Positions 3,213-27,681 of a stretch of DNA of 33,252 nt are shown here, piece after piece. The stretch is from a virus. Its lineage: Duplodnaviria > Caudoviricetes. Location of the stretch: positions 1 through 33,252 of IMG/VR virus record IMGVR_UViG_3300025015_000089. One strand, written 5' to 3'. The translations under genes were made by a program, and so were the position numbers. The notes beneath the pieces are model-generated. The model saw only the letters and a list, made by a program, of their open reading frames with translations, was not told where the DNA came from and did not search any database. Position 1 is the first letter of the stretch. Each line of letters begins with the position of its first letter.

Positions 3213-3230
3213 CGAATTTCAGTTTAACTG

Positions 3231-7578: not shown

Positions 7579-8307
7579 ATGCAATTGAAGATTAAGAAAA
7601 TATTAGATGAAATTGCTTCTGAAGGTTCGACAAACAGAAAAATGGCAATTCTTGCGAAGTATAAGAATAATGAATTACTTAAGAAAGTAATTTATCAAGC
7701 AAAATCTAAAAGAATAAAGTTTTATGTTAAACAAATTCCTCAATTTTTGACCAACAAAACAAATACAGTTTCTCTAGATTATGCAATAAGTCAACTAGAA
7801 TATATTTCAAATAGAACAAAAACGGGTCATGAAGCTTTAAATCATCTTAGAGGTTTATTGGCTTCTATGGACATAGATGATGCTTATGTTTTAGAAAGAA
7901 TAATTGATAGAGACCTTAAAATAGGAATGGGAACAACCAATATTAATAAGATATTTCCAGACCTAATTGAAAGAACCCCATATATGGGAGCAATTTCATT
8001 TGATGCAGATAGAGCTAAAAGTTTGTTTAAAGATGGTCCCTGCTTTAGTCAAGTAAAAATGGATGGAAGATATTGTAATGCTATTATTAGAGGTGGTGAA
8101 GTTGAAATGGAATCTCGTGGTGGTGAACCTACAGTTTTAAGTGGTTGTAAATTTGAAAAAGAACTTGAGAATTTAGATGACTGTATTTTAAACGGGGAAA
8201 TTACAATGGATTCAATTGAAAGAAAGATAATTTTAGGTAAAAATGACCTAATTGAAGTTGATGATAAAGTGTATAATTATGATGAGTTTTTAAATAAATT
8301 TAGTTAA
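7579..8307 (+). CDS. ATP-dependent DNA ligase, N-terminal fragment
   Basis: Motif I KMDGRY, SRGG, motif III ILNGEI; then a 31-aa non-ligase tail. Confidence 0.9.
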   Translation: MQLKIKKILDEIASEGSTNRKMAILAKYKNNELLKKVIYQAKSKRIKFYVKQIPQFLTNKTNTVSLDYAISQLEYISNRTKTGHEALNHLRGLLASMDIDDAYVLERIIDRDLKIGMGTTNINKIFPDLIERTPYMGAISFDADRAKSLFKDGPCFSQVKMDGRYCNAIIRGGEVEMESRGGEPTVLSGCKFEKELENLDDCILNGEITMDSIERKIILGKNDLIEVDDKVYNYDEFLNKFS

Positions 8308-8378
8308 CCATTGGAACTATAAATAAAAAGCATAATATTCCTTAGTTCATCTATATTTATATTAAAAGGAGAAATATT

Positions 8379-9292
8379 ATGTTTATATGCTATTTAACAA
8401 TTTATCATGGTGATCTGTTACCTCCATTTTATATAGGATCAACATCTTTAATTAACATAAAAAATGGATATAAAGGTTCAGTTGTATCTAAGAAATATAG
8501 TAAAATTTTTAAACAAGAAATTAAAAATAATAAAGATTTATTTGAGGTACTAATAATTTCAAAACATAAAACTCGTAAAGAAGCAATGATTGCCGAACTA
8601 GAAATTCAAAAGAAATTAAATGCAGTTAAATCAGAACCGTTTTTTAATGAGTCTTACGCAAGCATTGACAGAATGTTTGGAAGAAATGTAAAAGGTAAAA
8701 ACAATCCTATGTATGGCAAAAAGCACTCAGAAGAAACTAAAAAGAAAATAGCCATTAAAGCTACAGGTAGAAAAGTTTCTGAGGAAACTAAACAAAAACA
8801 TAGAGATGTAATAGTTAGTGAAGAAACTAGAAGAAAAATGGCTAACACACGTAGAGGTAAAAAGTTAACAGAAGAACAAAAGCATAAAATGTCTATTGCG
8901 CGTAAAGGTAAAAAACTTACAGAAGAACATAAGAAGAATATATCTGATGCACATCTAGGTAAAAAGTTTACAGAAGAACATAAAAAGAATATATCTAGAG
9001 GAGCCAAAAAAAGAAAACCTGTTTCAGAAGAAACTAGAAAAAAAATATCCATTGCAAAGAAAGGTAAAAAAGAAAAAAGTTTTCTATCAAGTGGAGAATG
9101 AACATAAGTAAAGCTAATAAAGGTAGAATTATGTCAGAGGAAGCAAAAGATAAGCTAAGTAAGGCTAAAACTGGGATGAAATATAAAATATTAACATGTC
9201 CACACTGTGGTAGAAGTGGCAGTGGTAATTTTAGAGGATATCATTTTAACAATTGTAAACAATATAATGAGAGTAATAGTGGAAAAAATTAA
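8379..9292 (+). mobile_element. Seg-like GIY-YIG/NUMOD3 homing endonuclease inserted in the ligase; frameshift near 9070
   Basis: CYLT...FYIGS...YKGS; many NUMOD3 repeats; ORF 9098-9292 continues the repeats and ends in CPHCG...HFNNC. Confidence 0.85.
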
Positions 9293-10109
9293 AAGCAAAA
9301 ATATTAAACAGATTTTAATTAATGATAATAACGTTGAGATATTAATTAGTGATGGAATTCCCCGTTACGAATCTAATGGTATAATTGCTTCCTTAATTGA
9401 TATTACTAAAAAACAGGACGATAGAGGTTCAGATAACACTCAAAAGAAAATTGATACCTTTGAAAATAAACATAAAATGGGTTATCAAGAAGCATTAGAT
9501 AAAATCAGATATACATGCTGGGATGTTATTTCAGTCGACGAGTATTATAATAACAAAAGTGATGTTGTATATTTAAATAGATTTGATAATTTAACATATC
9601 TTATATCAGATCTCAAACTGGTTTCTCTAATTGAAGGTAAAATTGTAAAAACATATGAAGAAGCAATAGAACACTTTCAGGAATTATTAAATAAAGGTGA
9701 AGAAGGTACCATATTAAAATCACTTAAAGGAACCTGGAAAGATGGTAAACCTAAATGGCAAATAAAGATGAAATTAGAAATGGACATCGATCTTAAAATC
9801 GTTGGTTTCAACTATGGTACTGGTAAAAATTTAAAACTTATTTCATCATTAGCATGCGAAACATCTGATGGACAACTTAAAACACGTCCAACTGGTATTA
9901 CTGAAAGTGATATGGAATATATTACAAATAACCAGAAGAAACTTTTAGGAACTGTTGTGGAAGTTAAGTGTAGTGGACTATCAAAGGATTCATTTGGTAA
10001 TTATTCTCTACTTCATCCAGTATTTAAGATGTTGAGAGATGATAAAAAGATTGCTAATTCTTTAACTGAGGTTAAAGAAATAGAAAAAATGATCAAAGGA
10101 TTAAAATAA
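9267..10109 (+). CDS. ATP-dependent DNA ligase, C-terminal fragment
   Basis: YTCWD (IIIa), EGTILK (IV), KMK (V), OB fold, SLLHPVF..LRDDK (VI); 28-aa N-terminal extension; start could be 9207. Confidence 0.9.
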   Translation: MRVIVEKIKSKNIKQILINDNNVEILISDGIPRYESNGIIASLIDITKKQDDRGSDNTQKKIDTFENKHKMGYQEALDKIRYTCWDVISVDEYYNNKSDVVYLNRFDNLTYLISDLKLVSLIEGKIVKTYEEAIEHFQELLNKGEEGTILKSLKGTWKDGKPKWQIKMKLEMDIDLKIVGFNYGTGKNLKLISSLACETSDGQLKTRPTGITESDMEYITNNQKKLLGTVVEVKCSGLSKDSFGNYSLLHPVFKMLRDDKKIANSLTEVKEIEKMIKGLK

Positions 10110-14106: not shown

Positions 14107-15120
14107 ACGGTTATTTCACAGACCCCTTTACGTGTGAGTATCACAGGTGGAAGTTGTGATTTTCCACAATATTACAGGTATCATGGGCCAGCATTAATAA
14201 TTTCAACGGCAATTAATAGGTACATATATGTGATTGTAAAGGAGAGATTCAACTCCGAGGTGGGTGCTTATTATGAGAAATCAGAAATAGTTGAAAGCGC
14301 ATCTAAATTAAATCATGAATTAATTCGAGAGACTGCAGATTTAGTAGGTTTAACTCATGGGTTTGATGTTTCAATTATGACTGATATTCCTACAAGTGGA
14401 AGTGGATTAGGTTCTAGTTCAGCTTTAACAGTTGGATTGTTACATGCGTTTTCGGTTTATAGTGGTAGAAATGTAAGTAATCAATGGCTAGCAGAAAATG
14501 CTTGCAAAATTGAAATAGATTTATTAAAGAAACCAATAGGTAAACAAGATCAATATATAGCAGCTTATGGTGGATTCAGAGCATTTTCGTTTTTAAAAGT
14601 AGAACATGATTATGATATTGATGAGGTGGTACCGCTAAAAATAAACCTATCAAATAATTTGAAAAGAGAATTAGAATCTAATCTAATGTTATATTTTACC
14701 AATAATACTAGAAATGCTTCTGATATTTTAACAGAACAAAAAAATAATATTAAAGATAAATTGCTTGAGTTAGATAAAATAAATGATATATCTAGAAATC
14801 TATATAAAGAATTAGTAATACATTGTACCATAGATAATGTTGGTGATGCATTGTTAAATAGTTGGAATGTTAAAAAACAATTAGCATCAAATATAAATAA
14901 TTCAGAAATAGAAACTATTTTAGGAAAAGCAATGAATGCTGGAGCAACAGGTGGTAAAGTGAGCGGTGCAGGTGGAGGTGGATTTGTTTTGGTTTTTTGT
15001 AAACCAGAAAGTCAGTCAGCAGTAAGAAAGACACTTAGCGATTATTATGAGTTTCCATTTAGATTTGAAGAACATGGATCGAAAATAATTTTAAATTTAC
15101 CAATTCAAACTATAAAATAA
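14107..15120 (+). CDS. hddA: GHMP kinase, D-glycero-D-manno-heptose-7-phosphate kinase-like
   Basis: VISQTPLRVSITGG, GSGLGSSS, GKQDQY and GAGGGG motifs; conserved N-terminus begins upstream of the tracked GTG. Confidence 0.85.
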   Translation, partial: TVISQTPLRVSITGGSCDFPQYYRYHGPALIISTAINRYIYVIVKERFNSEVGAYYEKSEIVESASKLNHELIRETADLVGLTHGFDVSIMTDIPTSGSGLGSSSALTVGLLHAFSVYSGRNVSNQWLAENACKIEIDLLKKPIGKQDQYIAAYGGFRAFSFLKVEHDYDIDEVVPLKINLSNNLKRELESNLMLYFTNNTRNASDILTEQKNNIKDKLLELDKINDISRNLYKELVIHCTIDNVGDALLNSWNVKKQLASNINNSEIETILGKAMNAGATGGKVSGAGGGGFVLVFCKPESQSAVRKTLSDYYEFPFRFEEHGSKIILNLPIQTIK

Positions 15121-15339
15121 CAAATATAGAAGGAAGAACATAATTGATAAAAATTATATTTTGGATATTAATATTTATAAATCTAGTAACTATTATTTTA
15201 TCTATAGTTAGTCCCACATTTAGAACAATTGTTTATTATATGTTTAAGAAATTGGGGATAAAATGATAGAATTTGGTTTGACAGTAATAGTGTTACAGTT
15301 ATTAGTTATAATACTTATTCTTCGGAGAATAGAGGACAA

Positions 15340-15705
15340 ATGAACTGGAAATTAATAAAAGATAAGTATCCAAAGGCATATTCCTTTTTAACAAAGAATG
15401 GTAGTTATTCTATTCATAGTAATGGATTGTTTGAGTGGGTTGAAGAATATTCTTATCTTTATCCATTAAGAGACCTCTACGATTTCTTTGATGAAAATGG
15501 TATAATAATTGGAATAGAATTTTCACCAGGTAATAAAGTTCTACCTTCTGATATTATAATATTCTATTATGATTTTTGGATAGATGGTATACCTGCATTT
15601 GAAAGTAAAGGTTATTTCAATGCTCGGATCGAAGCAGAAGAAGCAGCATTTTTAAAAGGATTTGAGGTCTTAGAAAATAAGTTGGAGAAAAATGAAAAAA
15701 TTTAG
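15340..15705 (+). CDS. Conserved phage hypothetical protein
   Basis: RDLYDFFDENGI and R.EAEEAAFLKGFEVLE pattern. Confidence 0.7.
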   Translation: MNWKLIKDKYPKAYSFLTKNGSYSIHSNGLFEWVEEYSYLYPLRDLYDFFDENGIIIGIEFSPGNKVLPSDIIIFYYDFWIDGIPAFESKGYFNARIEAEEAAFLKGFEVLENKLEKNEKI

Positions 15706-15837
15706 AGTTTGGTGAAAAGATTTTAGTGAATGGGAAAAAATTATATTTTATTAGGCCAAAATGGAAATATATTCCTTTTGGGTAAAAATAAATTATTGGT
15801 ACCACTTAAACCAAAACATAATTATAGTTTTAGAATT
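15692..15837 (+). pseudogene. Degraded YopX-like N-terminal fragment
   Basis: GGAG RBS; MKKFRVW*KDFSEWEK, then a frameshift into NYILLGQNG. Confidence 0.45.
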
Positions 15838-16464
15838 ATGGAAGACGAAACAAAACCTAATGAATTACATTTCAGTAGTTACCAAACTAAACTGAGAGAA
15901 GTATTTAACTCTTTGATTGTAAGTAATATTGATAACTTGGTAGAGGTCATCTGGGATGCTTATATTATGAATAAGAACATATTTATATGTGGTAATGGTG
16001 GGTCTTCTTCGAACGCAAGTCATTTTGCACAAGATTTAATTAAAGGTACCACTCCAACATATCATGGTTTAAGAGATTATGATAATAAATCCATTAGAGC
16101 AATATCCTTGTGTGATAATATTTCATTCATTACGGCAACTTCAAACGATGATGGGTATGAATATATATTTGTTAACCAGTTAAAGGTGTTCGCAAACCCA
16201 TTTGAAGATGTTCTTATTGCAATATCAGGAAGTGGTAACTCCTCTAATATATTAAAAGCAGTTCAGTGGGCAACACAGAGTAGAATTAAAGTAATAGGTA
16301 TTACTGGATTCGATGGTGGTGAATTAAAGAAGAAAGCTGAATTTAATGTACATGTTCCATTAGATGATATGTGTATGACAGAAGCAATTCATTCTATTAT
16401 ATTCCATTATGTGGTAGAAAAAATAAAAGAAAAACGAATTAAACAATCACTCATGAGTGAATAA
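15838..16464 (+). CDS. gmhA: Sedoheptulose-7-phosphate isomerase (SIS domain)
   Basis: ICGNGGS, TATSND, ISGSGNS and GITGFDGG motifs; start uncertain (15730 or 15838). Confidence 0.9.
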   Translation: MEDETKPNELHFSSYQTKLREVFNSLIVSNIDNLVEVIWDAYIMNKNIFICGNGGSSSNASHFAQDLIKGTTPTYHGLRDYDNKSIRAISLCDNISFITATSNDDGYEYIFVNQLKVFANPFEDVLIAISGSGNSSNILKAVQWATQSRIKVIGITGFDGGELKKKAEFNVHVPLDDMCMTEAIHSIIFHYVVEKIKEKRIKQSLMSE

Positions 16465-21493: not shown

Positions 21494-21530
21494 AAATCTA
21501 AATAGATATTGTAGAATTTCAATAGTGTAT

Positions 21531-21585
21531 TGATATTACCTTGATATTAATATGATATTAATGTGATATCACTATGATATCATAC
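21531..21585. repeat. Five TGATAT-core repeats at exact 11-bp period
   Basis: TGATAT at 21531, 21542, 21553, 21564 and 21575. Confidence 0.85.
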
Positions 21586-22261
21586 AAGATGAAGAAATTC
21601 TACTCTAAAACGAGAACGCCTGCAGTCCTTCGCTACCAGCAGCTACCAGCAGCTGCATGAGCTAGCCTTTACTAGTTCTCTCTGAGCTAAGCAGTAAAGT
21701 TTATGCAGCCAATGGTTGTCAGCCTTAAAAATAGTTAATTGGTCATATTAAAAATTTAACAATATCAAGGAGTAACATTATATAAATGCCCATGCTGCAA
21801 AAAATGGGACAAAGCAGTACGACTTATTGCCTGCGCACCATCAAGTAAAACGAATGTAAATGTGACGCATTGAATCGCGCATAGTAATGGTTTGTCCGCC
21901 TTAATAAAATTATCAAGTATTTCTGGCGTGCCATCAAAGGAAATGAACTAAAATTTAATTAGTAATATTAATTTTATGTCATTACTTACGCTGGTACACC
22001 CGGGTATACGATTTATAATAGAACTGATTAGGTTAACCTAAGAGCGCTTAAACTAAATTTTAGACTAAATTTTAGATTAAGTTTGCATATACAGCTACTA
22101 AAATTTAGAATTGTTTCCGGTTATATTCATATTATAGTATAAAACCAACTTTGTTACCGGTTACCGCTACGAACCGCATCAAAACAATAATATGTGACAT
22201 TATGTCATGCAGTATGACACCGGTCCGGACGGTCCGGACTTCCCTATAATATATGGGAATA

Positions 22262-22432
22262 CTGTTGACTATATCGATGGAATTTTATATATGTACTTAA
22301 ACTTAAAATTTTACAATAAATCTGTTGACTATATCGATGGAATTTTATATATGTACTTAAACTTAAAATTTTACAATAAATCTGTTGACTATATCGATGG
22401 AATTTCATATATTTACTTAATTTTACAATAAA
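22262..22432 (+). repeat. 60-bp tandem repeat (two identical copies plus one variant), each with a sigma70-like promoter
   Basis: Units start at 22262, 22322 and 22382; TTGACT-N17-TATATG/TATATT in each. Confidence 0.9.
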
Positions 22433-22588
22433 CCTGTAGATTAATTCATATGAAAACAACCAAAAAAGTTACTTATTTTCAAATAGACCTAATGGATCCA
22501 TTAGCACGACCTAAGAAGAAATTTTGTACCCACACCGATAGGAAATTATGAACTTAAAAAATAAATTAAATAATTATTCACAAATTAA

Positions 22589-22634
22589 AATAAGCCGAAG
22601 ATAAAAATAATTCGCTTTGATTAGCGAGCTATAT
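22589..22634 (-). mobile_element. Degenerate attC-like site 1
   Basis: Minus strand ATATAGC-N5-AATCAAAGCGAA...TTCGGCTTATT; R' box missing. Confidence 0.5.
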
Positions 22635-22658
22635 TTTTGGCGGTGGTAAGGAGAAAAA

Positions 22659-22949
22659 ATGATAGTGCCAATTTTTATGCCGATGAGACTCATTGACCCA
22701 CCTAAATGCCCGAAGTGTAGAAGAGATGAAAACATAAAAAAAGTTTGCCGACACTGTGGACATGAATACAAATACGAACCGACTACTTGGTATAAAAAAA
22801 TAATTTTTACTAGTGTAATAGTTTTAATTTTATGGGTGGGCATAACAATAGCCTTGTGGTTACTGGAAAATTTAGTGGGAGATAATAAAACGCTTTGGGA
22901 ACAAATAAAACTGGAGTGGGAATGGATTTCATTATTGAAGTTTTGGTAG
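22659..22949 (+). CDS. Zinc-ribbon membrane protein (cassette 1)
   Basis: AAGGAG RBS; CPKC...CRHC followed by a TM helix; flanked by inverted repeats. Confidence 0.75.
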   Translation: MIVPIFMPMRLIDPPKCPKCRRDENIKKVCRHCGHEYKYEPTTWYKKIIFTSVIVLILWVGITIALWLLENLVGDNKTLWEQIKLEWEWISLLKFW

Positions 22950-22960
22950 CCGCCAAATAA

Positions 22961-23093
22961 ATATAACAACGACGTTGCCGATAAAACGCAATGGATAAAA
23001 TTTATAAATTAAACATTGGAGAACAAAATGAATTACTTAAAAACAAAATTAATCGTACTAATATTAGTTGCCGTTTTGATTGGCTTGTTAGGC
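22961..23093 (-). mobile_element. attC-like recombination site 2 (133 bp)
   Basis: Minus strand R'' GCCTAAC-N5-L'' AATCAAAACGGCAA ... TTGCGTTTTATCGGC ... R' GTTATAT; two extra bases in the L'' arm. Confidence 0.7.
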
Positions 23094-23543
23094 GGTTGCG
23101 GACAAAAAGAAAAAATTATAAAGGAAAATATAATGATTACTAAAGAACAGAAAGAATTAATGGATTCAGTCATCGAGAGGGCTAATAAAGACAAATGGAA
23201 AGATATTGTAACACCAACCCAATATTTAGAAAAGAAAGCAGAAGATGGCTCGCCAAATACACTTTGTGGCACACTTGTTATCCCTCGATATGATAAGCCG
23301 AAAATTTATTATAATGAAATTACGAAAGAATATCGGGTATATCTTCCCGCAACAATAAGCACAAAGTATATGCAAACATGGACGACAGTAAATTTATCAA
23401 TGATTGGGGAAAGAAACGAAATAGTCCATAGTTTAGAAAGTGCTAATAACTTAGTTGATAAATGGTATGAAGAACAATATGCCAAATTTAAGAAAGATGA
23501 AGAATTAGAGAAAATACATGCAGCGTGGAGGGAAATACAATAG
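23028..23543 (+). CDS. Putative lipoprotein (cassette 2); alternative internal start at 23133
   Basis: GGAG RBS, then MNYLKTKLIVLILVAVLIGLLGGC with lipobox; second AAGGA RBS before ATG 23133. Confidence 0.7.
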   Translation: MNYLKTKLIVLILVAVLIGLLGGCGQKEKIIKENIMITKEQKELMDSVIERANKDKWKDIVTPTQYLEKKAEDGSPNTLCGTLVIPRYDKPKIYYNEITKEYRVYLPATISTKYMQTWTTVNLSMIGERNEIVHSLESANNLVDKWYEEQYAKFKKDEELEKIHAAWREIQ

Positions 23544-23547
23544 CAAT

Positions 23548-23580
23548 CCGCCTAACATCGTTGCGGTTAAACTGCTGCGG
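23548..23580 (-). mobile_element. Half attC-like site 3 (L'/R' arm only)
   Basis: Minus strand CCGCAGCAGTTTAACCGCAACGAT-GTTAGGCGG; resembles the R' arm of site 2. Confidence 0.55.
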
Positions 23581-23736
23581 AAATAAAAATAAAAGAGACC
23601 GTACATGACAAAAACTGAACTAAGTACAGTTAAAGTCGGGATCATACCTGCGCCCATAGTTATAAGGAAAAAAGATTTTGCCCAGAATGTAGAGAGAGAT
23701 TAACAAAAGAAAAAGGTACAATTATTTGATATTTTT

Positions 23737-23994
23737 ATGAAAAAGAAACTTATTAAAGTGAAAGTTATAACTAGTGACTACATAAAAGCGAAAAACAGAG
23801 TACTCAAAAAATACCCTAATGCAAGACCGGTATGGGTATTAATAGGATGGACTATTTGGGCTACAACTAAGAGTGGTTATAACCGTATTTCTAATGGGTG
23901 TGAAAAAGTTAAGCATGCTTGGATGCATGCTGCTAAGGAAATTTCTCTACTAAGAGAAACCTCGAGGGTATACCGTAATAAAAATAATATATAG
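23737..23994 (+). CDS. Small basic hypothetical protein
   Basis: KKYPNA...AWMHAA pattern. Confidence 0.6.
   Translation: MKKKLIKVKVITSDYIKAKNRVLKKYPNARPVWVLIGWTIWATTKSGYNRISNGCEKVKHAWMHAAKEISLLRETSRVYRNKNNI
23940..23959. repeat. Dispersed 20-bp hairpin repeat, copy 1
   Basis: AATTTCTCTACTAAGAGAAA, identical at 29869-29888. Confidence 0.85.
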
Positions 23995-24028
23995 AAAGAT
24001 ATAATATATAACAGCTAAAGATTTACCA

Positions 24029-24412
24029 ATGGCTCCTAAAGGTACTCCTGTAATTGTAAAGCAGCAAGAAGCAGGAATTAATCCACAATGTAAATTTTAC
24101 GCAGGAATATATGGCCAATATAATCTTGAAGTGATTTTATTTCATCAGGATGGATCGAAGAAAAGAAACCTAAAATTGTATATATATAAACCTGTATATA
24201 AGTGGCGCCGTGGTCGATTTTATGAATCTTATGACGCAGCTATAGCTACGCATGCAGGTACTCTTACTAAACTTACAGTGAAATTTGTCGAAGCAACAGA
24301 TGAGACAGAGTGTACATGTATTAATGCCCTACAGTACAATGCCCATGGAATGATTAGGTGGCATGGGCATGCCGAATCTGATATTTATTATATAAGTACT
24401 AAAATTTACTAA
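24029..24412 (+). CDS. Hypothetical protein
   Basis: 127-aa ORF whose 3' end runs into a tandem repeat. Confidence 0.5.
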   Translation: MAPKGTPVIVKQQEAGINPQCKFYAGIYGQYNLEVILFHQDGSKKRNLKLYIYKPVYKWRRGRFYESYDAAIATHAGTLTKLTVKFVEATDETECTCINALQYNAHGMIRWHGHAESDIYYISTKIY

Positions 24413-24492
24413 AGTACTAAAGTTGTTAGCCGAATCTGATTAAATTTATTATATAAGTACTAAAATTTACTAAAGTACTAAAGTTGTTAGCC
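24371..24492. repeat. Two-copy tandem repeat of about 58-61 bp
   Basis: GCCGAATCTGAT...AAGTACTAAAGTTGTTA starting at 24371 and 24429. Confidence 0.9.
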
Positions 24493-24624
24493 AGTGATCC
24501 TAATTTGAAAATAATTAATTATTCGTAATTACGAAAAGATTTTGGAACGAAAAGCCCGGCTTAGCGTACTTAGTTGTACCAGGGATCCCGGAGAAATTCT
24601 ATAAATAATACTAGAGGAAACAAA

Positions 24625-24816
24625 ATGGAATATTTAATCAAAGCATTACAAATACTTCTGAAATATGCTAATTCAAAATATATAATACACTGTGAACACA
24701 ACAAATTACTTGCTGATATTAACCCAGAATTAATAAGTCTAGAAGACATAACAGAACTAGATAAGCTTGGATGTTATATTGACGAAGAACGTGAGGGATT
24801 CTCATGTTATATGTAA
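24625..24816 (+). CDS. Conserved small phage protein
   Basis: GAGG RBS; LIKALQILLKY...HCEH...ELDKLG. Confidence 0.7.
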   Translation: MEYLIKALQILLKYANSKYIIHCEHNKLLADINPELISLEDITELDKLGCYIDEEREGFSCYM

Positions 24817-24846
24817 GCTATACTTTGACAGTTAATGGGAATTCTG

Positions 24847-24875
24847 TTGACTTTCACAATAAAATGTTGTATATT
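24847..24875 (+). promoter_or_regulatory. Sigma70-like promoter
   Basis: TTGACT-N17-TATATT preceded by TGGGAATTCTG. Confidence 0.75.
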
Positions 24876-24942
24876 TACCTATAGAATTCAAGTTATATTA
24901 AAATTTAAATAATATTAAACAAAATAGAAAGAGGTTACTATA

Positions 24943-25278
24943 ATGGCTAAAATAAAACTAGCTAAAACTGGAATTACTAAAACTGATGAACTGATCGCAT
25001 TCGTTACTACTGTTGTCAATACTACTACAGGGAAGATTTCATATATTGCTAAAACGATAGATGGAACAGAGTATGATATTGCACAAAAGAAACTAAGTTA
25101 TGCGTATGCTAACAAAGGAGTTGTAAGAGGGAGACCCTATGTAGTAGAAAATGCAGCAGGTGAAATCACTTACAAATGGAGAGTTGTTAAGGAGAGATTC
25201 ATTAACAGGATTGACTCAACTGTAGAAGCTACTGTTAAGCCAAAAACATCGAAAACCATAAGTCAACTAGTTGCTTAA
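24943..25278 (+). CDS. Basic hypothetical protein
   Basis: GAGG RBS; 111 aa. Confidence 0.7.
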   Translation: MAKIKLAKTGITKTDELIAFVTTVVNTTTGKISYIAKTIDGTEYDIAQKKLSYAYANKGVVRGRPYVVENAAGEITYKWRVVKERFINRIDSTVEATVKPKTSKTISQLVA

Positions 25279-25345: not shown

Positions 25346-25396
25346 TTAAATGTGGGAATTCTATGTACTTTCATGTTAAAATTTTGTATATTTACT
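25346..25396 (+). promoter_or_regulatory. 51-bp promoter block, copy 1
   Basis: Identical to 27592-27642; contains TGTACT-N17-TATATT. Confidence 0.8.
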
Positions 25397-25405
25397 TATA
25401 TTAAT

Positions 25406-27376
25406 ATGTCAAAAATCAAAAAAAATACATATAAAACTGGTACATACCGAGATTACTTAGATTTTAATAAATCTTCTAAATTTTGGCTGGGTACTGATAC
25501 TTATAATAATCTTCAAAGACATTATAATGGCACTAAAAATATAAATTTAGAAGAGCTCTTGAGTAAGGTCAAAATTCTTCATACTATATCTAATTTTATA
25601 AAAATAATTTCAAATAAAACTAATATTGAAGTTAATTATGAAGGTGCACAATCATCAACGGATGGTAAAAAAATTACAATATCTGCAAATGTAAAAGATT
25701 TTGATTTTGTATGTGGTCAAGCAATGCACGAAGCTGGTCATCTTTTATATAGTCAAAAGTTATTAGCTTGGTTAGAGGAATTTGTAAACAAATACGTATG
25801 TGGCTGGAAAACATCGTTCCCTGCAATTCCAGTTGATACCCTAATTAATTCAATTTTTGATCGGTTTGAAACTAGACAACTTAACAATAGAACGGCTAAT
25901 TCTATGTTAAAAACTTTTATAATATTTAAGGATATTCTTAACTTTGTAGAAGATAGAAGAATCGATTCTTTAGTTATATCAAAATATCCTGGTTACAAAG
26001 GTTATTATGATACAATTACAGTTGAGGGTTTATGGAACCCAAACATAAAAGCTGAACTTTTAAAGTTAAAAGGACAAGAGACGTGGGGAGGATATATTAG
26101 TCATCTATTTTCTTTATTGGACGAAAATCCTGATCTGGACGCTCTAAAAGGTTTAAGAAAGATATCTAATATTTTAGATATTAAAAACATTAATAATGTT
26201 ACAAATGTAAATAAAGTTTTGGCAATTGCAGTTGCAATCTTTAAAGAAATTGAGAAAAATGTAGAAGAAGATAAAACTAAATCTGAATCTACTAAAGATG
26301 AAGATACTAATAGATATGATGAAAAAAATGACCCAAATATAGTTGACAAAGAACTTAGTAAAAATATTAAAAAAGCAATTAATATTATAAATGGTGAATC
26401 AAAAAAAGAGAAACTCACATTTGAGGAACAAAGTGTTTATCAACTATTAAATAATAAAACTGGTGACTATTATTTGAGAAGTATTTCGGCTCTGGGTAAA
26501 AAGTTTGAGGTAGTAGTTATTGAAAGAATGACCGAAAATATTAAAAATATTTTTCCTGGTGTTTTTGTTGATTTATTTGAACTTAAAAGCACTAACTCAA
26601 ACAGAAAGGCAATTGAATCTGGAATAAATAAAGGCAAATCGTTAGCTAATAAATTAATGTTAACAAACGATGACAAAATGGGTTACACGCCTCGTAAAAA
26701 ATCAGGTTATATTGATACTCGAATTTTATCAGAAATTCCCTCTGGAAATGTAAAAATCTTTAAAAGAAAATTCGTAGATATTCAAGAAAAAACTTACTTG
26801 CATATAACTTTAGATAGTTCAGGTTCAATGTTTGGAAGCAAATGGTGCAATGCACTCGAAATGGCTGCAATGTTTGCTTCAGCATCAAAATTATTAAAAA
26901 ACTTAGAAGTTGAAATTACTTGTAGATCTACAATGAGTTTACCTATTATATTTAATAGAACAATTTACATTCTTAAAATGTTCGATTCTGCAATTCATGA
27001 TCTAGCATATTTAAGAAAGTGGTGGCCAATCATAAAAGTAAATGGCTATACTCCTGAAGGTTTAGCCTTTGACACAACAGCAGACATTATTAAAAAACGA
27101 GCAAAAGACAAAAACAAACTTTTTGTGAACATAAGTGATGGTTGTCCTGGTTGTGATGGTTATAGTGGAAATGAAGCAATTGATCATACTAAAAAAGTTA
27201 TAGATGGTTTAAGACAAGATGGTTTTATTATTTGTTCATATTTAATAGATGTATTTTCAAGTTCAAGTGTAAAAGTCCAATTTGAAAGAATGTATGGGAA
27301 GAAAGATAGTCATAAAGTTACTCAAGTGGATCCATTAAAAATTGCACATACAATTAATCCATATTTAATAATGTAG
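25406..27376 (+). CDS. Metallopeptidase-like N-domain plus vWA domain protein (CobT-like AAA partner)
   Basis: HEAGH, NFVEDRRID, MIDAS DSSGS, TPEG and ISDG motifs. Confidence 0.85.
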   Translation: MSKIKKNTYKTGTYRDYLDFNKSSKFWLGTDTYNNLQRHYNGTKNINLEELLSKVKILHTISNFIKIISNKTNIEVNYEGAQSSTDGKKITISANVKDFDFVCGQAMHEAGHLLYSQKLLAWLEEFVNKYVCGWKTSFPAIPVDTLINSIFDRFETRQLNNRTANSMLKTFIIFKDILNFVEDRRIDSLVISKYPGYKGYYDTITVEGLWNPNIKAELLKLKGQETWGGYISHLFSLLDENPDLDALKGLRKISNILDIKNINNVTNVNKVLAIAVAIFKEIEKNVEEDKTKSESTKDEDTNRYDEKNDPNIVDKELSKNIKKAINIINGESKKEKLTFEEQSVYQLLNNKTGDYYLRSISALGKKFEVVVIERMTENIKNIFPGVFVDLFELKSTNSNRKAIESGINKGKSLANKLMLTNDDKMGYTPRKKSGYIDTRILSEIPSGNVKIFKRKFVDIQEKTYLHITLDSSGSMFGSKWCNALEMAAMFASASKLLKNLEVEITCRSTMSLPIIFNRTIYILKMFDSAIHDLAYLRKWWPIIKVNGYTPEGLAFDTTADIIKKRAKDKNKLFVNISDGCPGCDGYSGNEAIDHTKKVIDGLRQDGFIICSYLIDVFSSSSVKVQFERMYGKKDSHKVTQVDPLKIAHTINPYLIM

Positions 27377-27591: not shown

Positions 27592-27642
27592 TTAAATGTG
27601 GGAATTCTATGTACTTTCATGTTAAAATTTTGTATATTTACT
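27592..27642 (+). promoter_or_regulatory. 51-bp promoter block, copy 2
   Basis: Identical to 25346-25396. Confidence 0.8.
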
Positions 27643-27681
27643 ATGTAATTAAATTTAACAAATCAAATAATTAAGGTTAAT

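Follow-up and report, generated by a model that had tools for sequence, protein, structure and literature searches.

The window, i.e., the whole stretch of 33,252 nt that was analysed, is a linear virus record rated 17% complete, and it probably holds a decayed array, likely locked, whose integron-type cassettes are inverted: each gene comes after its own long-spacer attC-type site and was likely inserted by the IntI of an Ignavibacteria-like host. The array works like an integron cassette array; its site is not a canonical attC, its cassettes are not canonical cassettes, and it is no longer a CALIN.

Phage record and layout of the array

The gene content of the window includes homing endonucleases, a DNA ligase, an AAA ATPase and two tRNAs, the latter being all that an Rfam scan of the window returned. 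A metagenome contig of 134,547 nt matches it with 99.95% identity across the 12 kb compared, which means that the phage is large and that the window is a part of at least 134.5 kb. The stretch is present in 20 of 21 runs among those listed, labelled as groundwater, soil or sediment metagenomes. Comparison with annotated phages by blastn gave only E values of 0.09 or worse in the 20 records listed out of 118. With the vWA-like protein as query no relatives of the phage were found in viral contigs, and with the AAA protein one distant locus was found there (L001), which has no match to the site model.

Several other features of the record were observed. The ATP-dependent DNA ligase is encoded in two ORFs (7579–8307 and 9207–10109) with a homing endonuclease ORF (8379–9101) between them; this split over 7579–10109 is the layout expected from a group I intron, and it gave no Rfam intron match. 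GHMP kinase and SIS-domain genes (14134–16464) are suggestive of a heptose or sugar-phosphate pathway of the phage, and this region has nucleotide matches of 66–68% in a single genome from the class to which the Ignavibacterium MAG described below belongs, the one lineage searched. A 79-nt segment with 88% identical copies (25346–25423 and 27592–27670) precedes a 674-aa ORF and the AAA ATPase gene, respectively, and is similar to the promoter motif at 22262–22441. The stretch 21500–22260 is mostly non-coding, with raised G+C and short repeats, and contig ends cluster near 21820–21850 in several runs, with deeper coverage to the right in one run.

The features of the array are as follows:

22262–22441, + strand: triple 60-nt tandem repeat with a sigma70-like promoter motif (repeat family D1)
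22548–22643, + strand: site A, loop and right arm (L'' box 22616–22622, core 22628–22634), 14.0 bits; left arm lost
22659–22949, + strand: gene 1, 96 aa, with two CxxC pairs and a hydrophobic segment; no family
22950–22967, + strand: 3' inverted repeat of cassette 1, complement of 22628–22643, directly after the stop
22964–23093, + strand: site B, complete long-spacer attC-type site, E 7e-14
23018–23099, + strand: GGAG resembling a ribosome-binding site, ATG at 23028 and codons 1–24 of gene 2, inside site B
23028–23543, + strand: gene 2, predicted lipoprotein of 171 aa; translation from 23133, another possible start, would yield 136 aa and no signal
23541–23556, + strand: stop of gene 2 with the 3' inverted repeat of its cassette; two further lipoprotein cassettes have the identical sequence
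23550–23580, + strand: site C, left arm only (AAC 23554–23556, 9-nt spacer, L' 23566–23571), 13.7 bits
23606–23727, + strand: possible remnant of a third-cassette gene: a frame of 32 codons that overlaps another one with CxxC-like motifs

The original prediction had described this region as integron-like cassettes, and the motifs that it quoted all lie where it placed them. The two outer sites, which it regarded as partial, are indeed halves. Site A, whose region also includes the 5' inverted repeat of cassette 1 (22628–22643), has GCT in its core where GTT is expected; it is 81% identical over 111 nt to a complete site on contig L127 of the Ignavibacterium MAG and 85–88% identical to L292 and L275, and its counterpart is complete in three other contigs. 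For site C, no matching right arm was found; left-only sites of this kind precede genes in the phage contig L124. A half-site pattern matched twice in the window and never in 100 shuffles, the pattern having been drawn from those same two matches. A CALIN has at least two complete attC sites close together and no integrase nearby: here there is one complete site with two halves, and, as had been stated before, there is no integrase in the window, given that no PF00589 match was found in this 33-kb record of a larger phage. Gene 1 has nothing in Pfam or PHROG at E 0.001, with zinc-ribbon matches only below the cut-off, and has one relative, at 67%. The frame at 23606–23727 is possibly the leftover of a third cassette gene.

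The promoter motif of 22262–22441 recurs at 3228, 20177 and 24844; over the whole window, promoter-like sites number 24 versus 20.4 in shuffles, which is no excess. Judging from its sequence, the repeat likely promotes transcription of the array. In the tandem repeats at 22262–22441 (60-nt) and 24383–24492 (61-nt), the contig of one run lacks one 60-nt copy and that of another lacks one 61-nt copy, which reflects either copy-number variation or assembly collapse.

Site B consists of AAC (22968–22970), a 9-nt spacer, L' (22980–22985), an AT-rich loop, L'' (23075–23081), a 5-nt spacer and the core (23087–23093), with C 23071 and G 23078 unpaired, and its + strand is the predicted recombining (bottom) strand. 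The AAC and GTT cores (22968–22970 and 23087–23089) are complementary, and the paired L box has its unpaired G (23078) 5 nt from the inverse core, in the register of aadA7. The second unpaired base lies six pairs further (23071), the position that it has in attC, and is a C; an unpaired T is found in the closest relative of site B and in 149 of 159 family sites, the latter in a count that permits a one-base register shift. The textbook spacer is 5–6 nt on each arm; the AAC arm of site B has 9 nt, and its geometry is that of the Ignavibacteria-type sites. An attC scan of the window at the textbook 6-nt spacing gave 0 matches, and with one spacer relaxed the middle site B alone appears, in the minus-strand orientation originally given; the earlier reading of the extra base on that strand was also correct. 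The length of 133 bp had to be revised. The 3' repeat of cassette 1 ends in an AAC that is followed by a second AAC, a 3-nt duplication, and the second one (22968–22970) is the true left core given that it yields the 9-nt spacer of the family and a site of 130 nt. Of the 159 in-register family sites, site B alone has such a doubled core.

In a covariance model built from 17 sites outside the window, site B scores 80.6 bits and the next best stretch of the window 14. This score is partly circular, since patterns taken from site B, along with a pairing grammar, had served to find the seed sites. The earlier claim that the sites are attC-type is supported. The whole of site B folds no better than its shuffles (z of +0.74 and +1.10), and none of the folding z-scores of sites A, B and C is significant; the support for site B comes from family membership and not from folding energy.

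Integron cassettes have as hallmarks complementary core sites at both ends and an extra base in L'', and their genes normally point toward the attC. Both genes of the window have cassette-specific complementary ends. Among the 54 plus-strand ORFs, gene 2 ranks first for complementarity of its 5' and 3' flanks (score 24, taken from the inner ATG at 23130), and gene 1 is tied second (22) with one AT-rich ORF. The upstream bracket originally proposed for gene 2 falls within the long frame, in codons 21–24 of the ORF from 23028. In a canonical cassette the gene lies upstream of its own attC and runs into it, whereas here the gene comes after its own site.

The site family and its mobile unit

The half-site pattern gave 120 loci in viral contigs, almost all of them by chance, and only L112 was taken further; from one half-site locus, on a phage contig of 40.6 kb, an array was reached in which full as well as half sites are built like site B. 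Two-arm patterns matched 7 genome loci, 4 and 9 viral loci and 61 metagenome loci, and neither the exact site-B pattern nor the short-loop pattern had a match in viral contigs. Three of the seven genome matches (L126, L129 and L131) were rejected, the pairing grammar finding no site and the model no match, as was L132, where the grammar alone found a weak site and the model had no match. The model search over 61 genomes, in which about 56 candidates were scored per genome, is no measure of prevalence.

The 17 outside sites align to one consensus on the strand with the unpaired bases: an AAC core and a 9-nt spacer lead to L' and an AT-rich loop, after which come the unpaired T, six pairs, the unpaired G, a 5-nt spacer and the GTT core. 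In these seed sites 83.8% of the cells are paired versus 65.9% when shuffled, a figure that is inflated because the sites were picked partly for pairing, in a test that is as partly circular as the model score; 14 of the 21 pairs have changes on both sides. Aligned over 132 nt, site B and a site of another phage-like contig share 85.6% identity, and the published bottom strand of aadA7 has the same register of G and T, with a 6-nt spacer. The 10 nt at the right core of a site are matched by a downstream complement in 110 of 131 sites, compared with a mean of 17 and a maximum of 27 for shuffled partners.

The earlier observation that the genes are inverted relative to the attC sites stands. Among the non-redundant model matches, those adjacent to IntI all have normally oriented genes (14 of 14). 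The 13 sites in IMG/VR records or in the window comprise 11 inverted, 1 normal and 1 unscored, and of the 136 sites on other, unclassified contigs 108 are inverted and 15 normal, while 2 are unscored and 11 lie too close to a contig end.

Some of these contigs have features of their own. Many cassettes in L124 (970–4900) consist of the left arm only, directly followed by a ribosome site and ATG, a sequence pattern that suggests a recurrent deletion route by which cassettes are fixed. L127 and L128, the latter a contig of a Patescibacteria MAG, are short MAG contigs with inverted arrays of the phage type; they may be fragments of phages or prophages that were binned wrongly. In L125, L127, L128, L290 and L293, several read-through cassette ORFs of 194–307 aa have DPPY-like motifs, of the kind known from DNA methyltransferases. 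The cassettes with DPPY motifs in these five contigs echo the methyltransferase cassettes reported in the available part of PMC9892861.

Among 50 inter-locus alignment rows of at least 200 nt, many of which are re-assemblies of one genome or gene-internal, 14 begin at most 6 nt from a left AAC and 6 end at most 5 nt from one; none begins at a right GTT, and two begin 16–17 nt before GTT. Several shared blocks terminate away from any detected site. L290 and L293 agree fully as far as one AAC and once more starting at a later AAC, the cassettes in the middle being different, and a further indel between the two contigs terminates at an 8-nt microhomology, 5–12 nt before AAC. The comparison of cassette content in relatives, which had been put forward as a check, thus places the boundaries of gain and loss in related arrays at the AAC core. 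IntI cuts the bottom strand of attC between A and C of the core, according to the available text of PMC5027507, and the alignment boundaries at AAC indicate that the unit is the site plus the following gene, bounded at this cut. In relatives its left end is the AAC of the upstream site and its right end the AAC that follows the stop codon, with the gene in the middle, and by analogy the unit of cassette 2 would be 22970–23555.

No joint at the sites was found in the contigs of 8 runs, and two other assemblies are identical to the window over 21500–24999. One joint into 23022 was dismissed, given that it is an 18-nt match only and that its depth is unrelated to the phage. The half-sites A and C, together with the lack of rearrangement in the 8 runs, indicate that the array is probably locked, and the suggestion that it is still being shuffled is not supported. 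The same invariance in the runs and in the two assemblies is in line with a further origin, rather unlikely and compatible with the explanation preferred here, in which the two-gene block was taken ready-made from another phage by homologous or illegitimate recombination, and the sites never recombined here and persist as translation signals. Other phage-like contigs do have near-identical sites, site A has lost its left arm just where the block ends, and the array region (22501–24500, with G+C of 0.31–0.34 per 500-nt bin) is richer in G+C than most of the window. Nonetheless, arm loss is common within larger phage arrays, so that decay in place gives the same pattern, and a donor with the same gene order was not found among the compared contigs. 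Insertion by a host IntI followed by decay is preferred as the explanation, and its enzyme is considered next.

The candidate integrase and host

The closest named match of the family is on L127, from the Ignavibacterium MAG. In the class of this MAG, the class names of the genomes searched being inferred, 29 of 151 genomes carry an integrase above the cut-off of TIGR02249. Matches to the left-arm motif number 137 in this class, spread over 42 of 301 genomes, and the reversed control gives 21; for the class of the Saprospiraceae MAG the corresponding figures are 14 matches in 14 of 301 genomes and 13, which is control level (the motif totals are sums of tabulated counts). The 40 sites within about 10 kb of 20 integrase genes have a spacer of 8 in 25 cases, 9 in 12, 7 in 1 and 6 in 2. 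In five motif-rich genomes the spacer is 9 in 45 of 47 sites, with normally oriented genes at 40 of 47, and the IntI is upstream of the array on the same strand in three, on another contig in one and without a match in one. The chromosomal sites of these genomes are nearly all of 186–246 nt; those of phages are of about 130 nt. One integrase of the Ignavibacteria class aligns with VchIntIA (2A3V) over residues 18–327 with two one-residue gaps only. The integrons sampled from this class are of two kinds, with 8-nt spacers (L227, L228, L231 and L237) or 9-nt spacers (L229, L232 and L239); in the former intI is divergent from the array in L227, L228 and L231, and in the latter it is on the cassette strand.

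None of the eight virus records with such sites, two of them rated complete, has a PF00589 match. Given this absence and the chromosomal arrays of the same type that lie beside IntI, the host IntI is the best candidate for the enzyme. The original prediction had named a host or distant IntI-like recombinase, and a host IntI is likely right: the same site type flanks IntI genes in Ignavibacteria, and from these comparisons an Ignavibacteria-like host likely supplies the IntI. No cassette gene common to a phage and an IntI-adjacent array was found among the aligned loci, and an insensitive search of 301 genomes gave no CRISPR-like match to the phage.

It is considerably less probable that the sites are moved by another tyrosine recombinase, either Xer-like, as in rAID-1 of Bacteroidales, or encoded elsewhere in the phage, of which about 100 kb lie outside the window searched. 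The rAID-1 arrays combine a XerD-family recombinase with integron-like intergenic repeats (10.1101/471110, available part), the 9-nt spacer departs from the 5–6 nt described for attC in the text available of PMC5027507, and the Saprospiraceae MAG has such sites without an adjacent recombinase. However, the closest chromosomal arrays adjoin integrases above the TIGR02249 cut-off, among them the one that aligns fully with VchIntIA, matches to the left-arm motif do not rise above the control level among genomes of the Saprospiraceae MAG's class, and the virus records are uniformly devoid of PF00589 matches. A Xer-type recombinase was not found beside the sites in the loci scanned.

The completeness of site B, and the fact that the run data are contigs, which drop rare variants, would allow for a still active array from which cassette 2 is excised at low frequency. 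This is very improbable, given that both neighbours of site B are half-sites, incapable of forming a partner hairpin, that site B lacks the T present in nearly all family sites, and that the 8 runs show no joint at the sites. The repeats might have been chance matches or terminator hairpins, in line with the unexceptional folding of site B and with a terminator-like hairpin that overlaps site A, but this reading is refuted by the bit score of site B, by its identity to the site in another phage-like contig and by the family-wide cassette-specific complementarity.

A gene start within the site and its meaning

The long frame of gene 2 begins at 23028, in site B and after GGAG, and reads MNYLKTKLIVLILVAVLIGLLGGC, with LIGLLG encoded by the L'' box, the spacer and the core of site B. 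Lipoprotein signals have a basic n-region, a hydrophobic h-region and a lipobox with a Cys. The N-terminus of gene 2 has a basic start, a hydrophobic stretch (peak 10-residue hydropathy of 3.9) and a lipobox-like end, LGGC, with the codon of Cys24 at 23097–23099; it thus has the sequence features of a bacterial lipoprotein with a predicted signal peptide. The original prediction overlooked this gene start and signal peptide within the site, as well as the 9-nt spacer. For the signal peptide Pfam gave only a sub-cut-off match, no relatives of gene 2 were found outside its own cluster and it belongs to no known family, and its single-sequence AlphaFold model is unusable (pLDDT of 48). Function prediction for the array genes gave no families and Atlas scores below 0.9.

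In 51 of 163 non-redundant sites an ORF begins within the site and continues across the right arm, which is the case in none of the 14 chromosomal ones. Starts that resemble signal peptides, in one common frame, are found in seven sites, those of gene 2 and of six other cassettes. Sites whose arm is hydrophobic when read in that frame have a start and an open frame in 6 of 7 cases versus 16 of 156 for the others (p = 2e-5, one of the seven signal-peptide cassettes falling just below the hydrophobicity threshold), and this association indicates that the hydrophobic stretch is no by-product of the site consensus.

The cassettes of the window, of L290/L293 and of L270 resemble each other as far as the Cys codon and once more from the stop codon onward; even the extra base that is unpaired in the 3' repeat is common to them. 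No similarity links the mature parts (147, 60 and 88 aa), the best blastp E among the three being 0.29. In chromosomal integrons, similar sites with unrelated genes are normal; the unusual point here is that the shared part extends into the coding sequence and includes the stop. Replacement of the cargo between Cys and stop is the preferred reading of these sequences over fast divergence. A bolder proposal, which we regard as possible but doubtful, is that of a reusable chassis, in which the attC, the ribosome site, the signal up to the lipidated Cys, and the stop with its repeat would be inherited together while the cargo is swapped; with a host IntI that accepts 8–9-nt spacers, each cargo would become mobile and exported in one step. 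If true, this chassis would be a direct trace of cassette genesis.

The following course of events is proposed. By sequence comparison, site B belongs to a family with the textbook L box, two unpaired bases and a 9-nt spacer on the AAC side. Arrays of this family adjoin IntI in Ignavibacteria chromosomes, with normal genes, and the comparison of orientations indicates that in phage-like contigs the gene is reversed and the site precedes it. Because the site travels ahead of its gene, the loop and arm would have been recruited as ribosome site and start codon and, in gene 2, as lipoprotein signal peptide. Transcription of the array would come from the upstream triple promoter. Fixation would have occurred through the loss of arms in sites A and C, the GTT-to-GCT change and, in site B, the loss of the conserved unpaired T; site B itself has probably persisted owing to its coding role.

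Phage CALINs without an integrase have been reported by Qi et al. 2023 (PMC9892861), where IntI1 recombined 5 of 6 sites tested; as here, clusters of attC lie between small genes in phages that lack an integrase. The part of that paper that is available calls the arrays of TJE1 and PH101 typical in structure and the sites of P12002L divergent, and its text does not speak of inverted genes, long spacers or coding sites; its Supplementary File S1 has strand annotations that could be relevant to the inversion. The canonical attC of aadA7 and VCR2 (Nivina et al. 2016, PMC5027507, in the text available) shares with site B the AAC/GTT core, the L box, the unpaired G, the second unpaired base six pairs further and the bottom-strand asymmetry. 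It differs in that site B has a spacer of 9 and not 5–6 nt on the AAC arm and C as the second unpaired base, and that the gene of the window follows its own site and begins inside it.

Integrons of Ignavibacteriae are mentioned in the available part of Neron et al. 2022 (PMC9024848). Their chromosomal integrons resemble site B in the arms with 9-nt spacers, the near-identical left-arm motif and the position beside IntI, and differ from the window in their normal genes, sites mostly of 186–246 nt, an integrase in cis and 0 of 14 sites with a gene start. Synthetic protein-coding attC sites, as designed linkers and lacZ insertions, are described in the available text of Nivina et al. 2020 (PMC7439510); in them, as in site B, one sequence is both recombination site and coding sequence, but site B is natural and encodes a predicted N-terminal export signal. 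The rAID-1 arrays (10.1101/471110, part of the text) are alike in their small genes, their integron-like repeats and the related lineage, and unlike the window in having a XerD-family recombinase in cis and a bacterial chromosome as location, the likeness being one of description and not of repeat sequence. The available parts of PMC8618304, PMC9668308 and PMC10500605 contain nothing on inverted genes or cassette origin. Phage attC clusters, Ignavibacteriae integrons and synthetic coding attC sites are thus already published, while systematically inverted phage cassettes, 8–9-nt spacers and natural signal-peptide sites are described nowhere in the literature searched, in which few subscription papers were covered.

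To our knowledge, the origin of integron cassettes is still an open question. Three cassettes that are alike up to the Cys codon and from the stop, with dissimilar mature domains, offer a concrete junction for studying how cassettes are made. The work also names an enzyme and substrate pair, the IntI of Ignavibacteria and sites with 9-nt spacers; sites with 8–9-nt spacers may be missed by models tuned to 6-nt spacers. In site B, a natural recombination site also encodes a predicted export signal, a combination that in the literature searched is otherwise met only as a synthetic design. Given that the array of the window is small and decayed, its value is as an entry to this site family.
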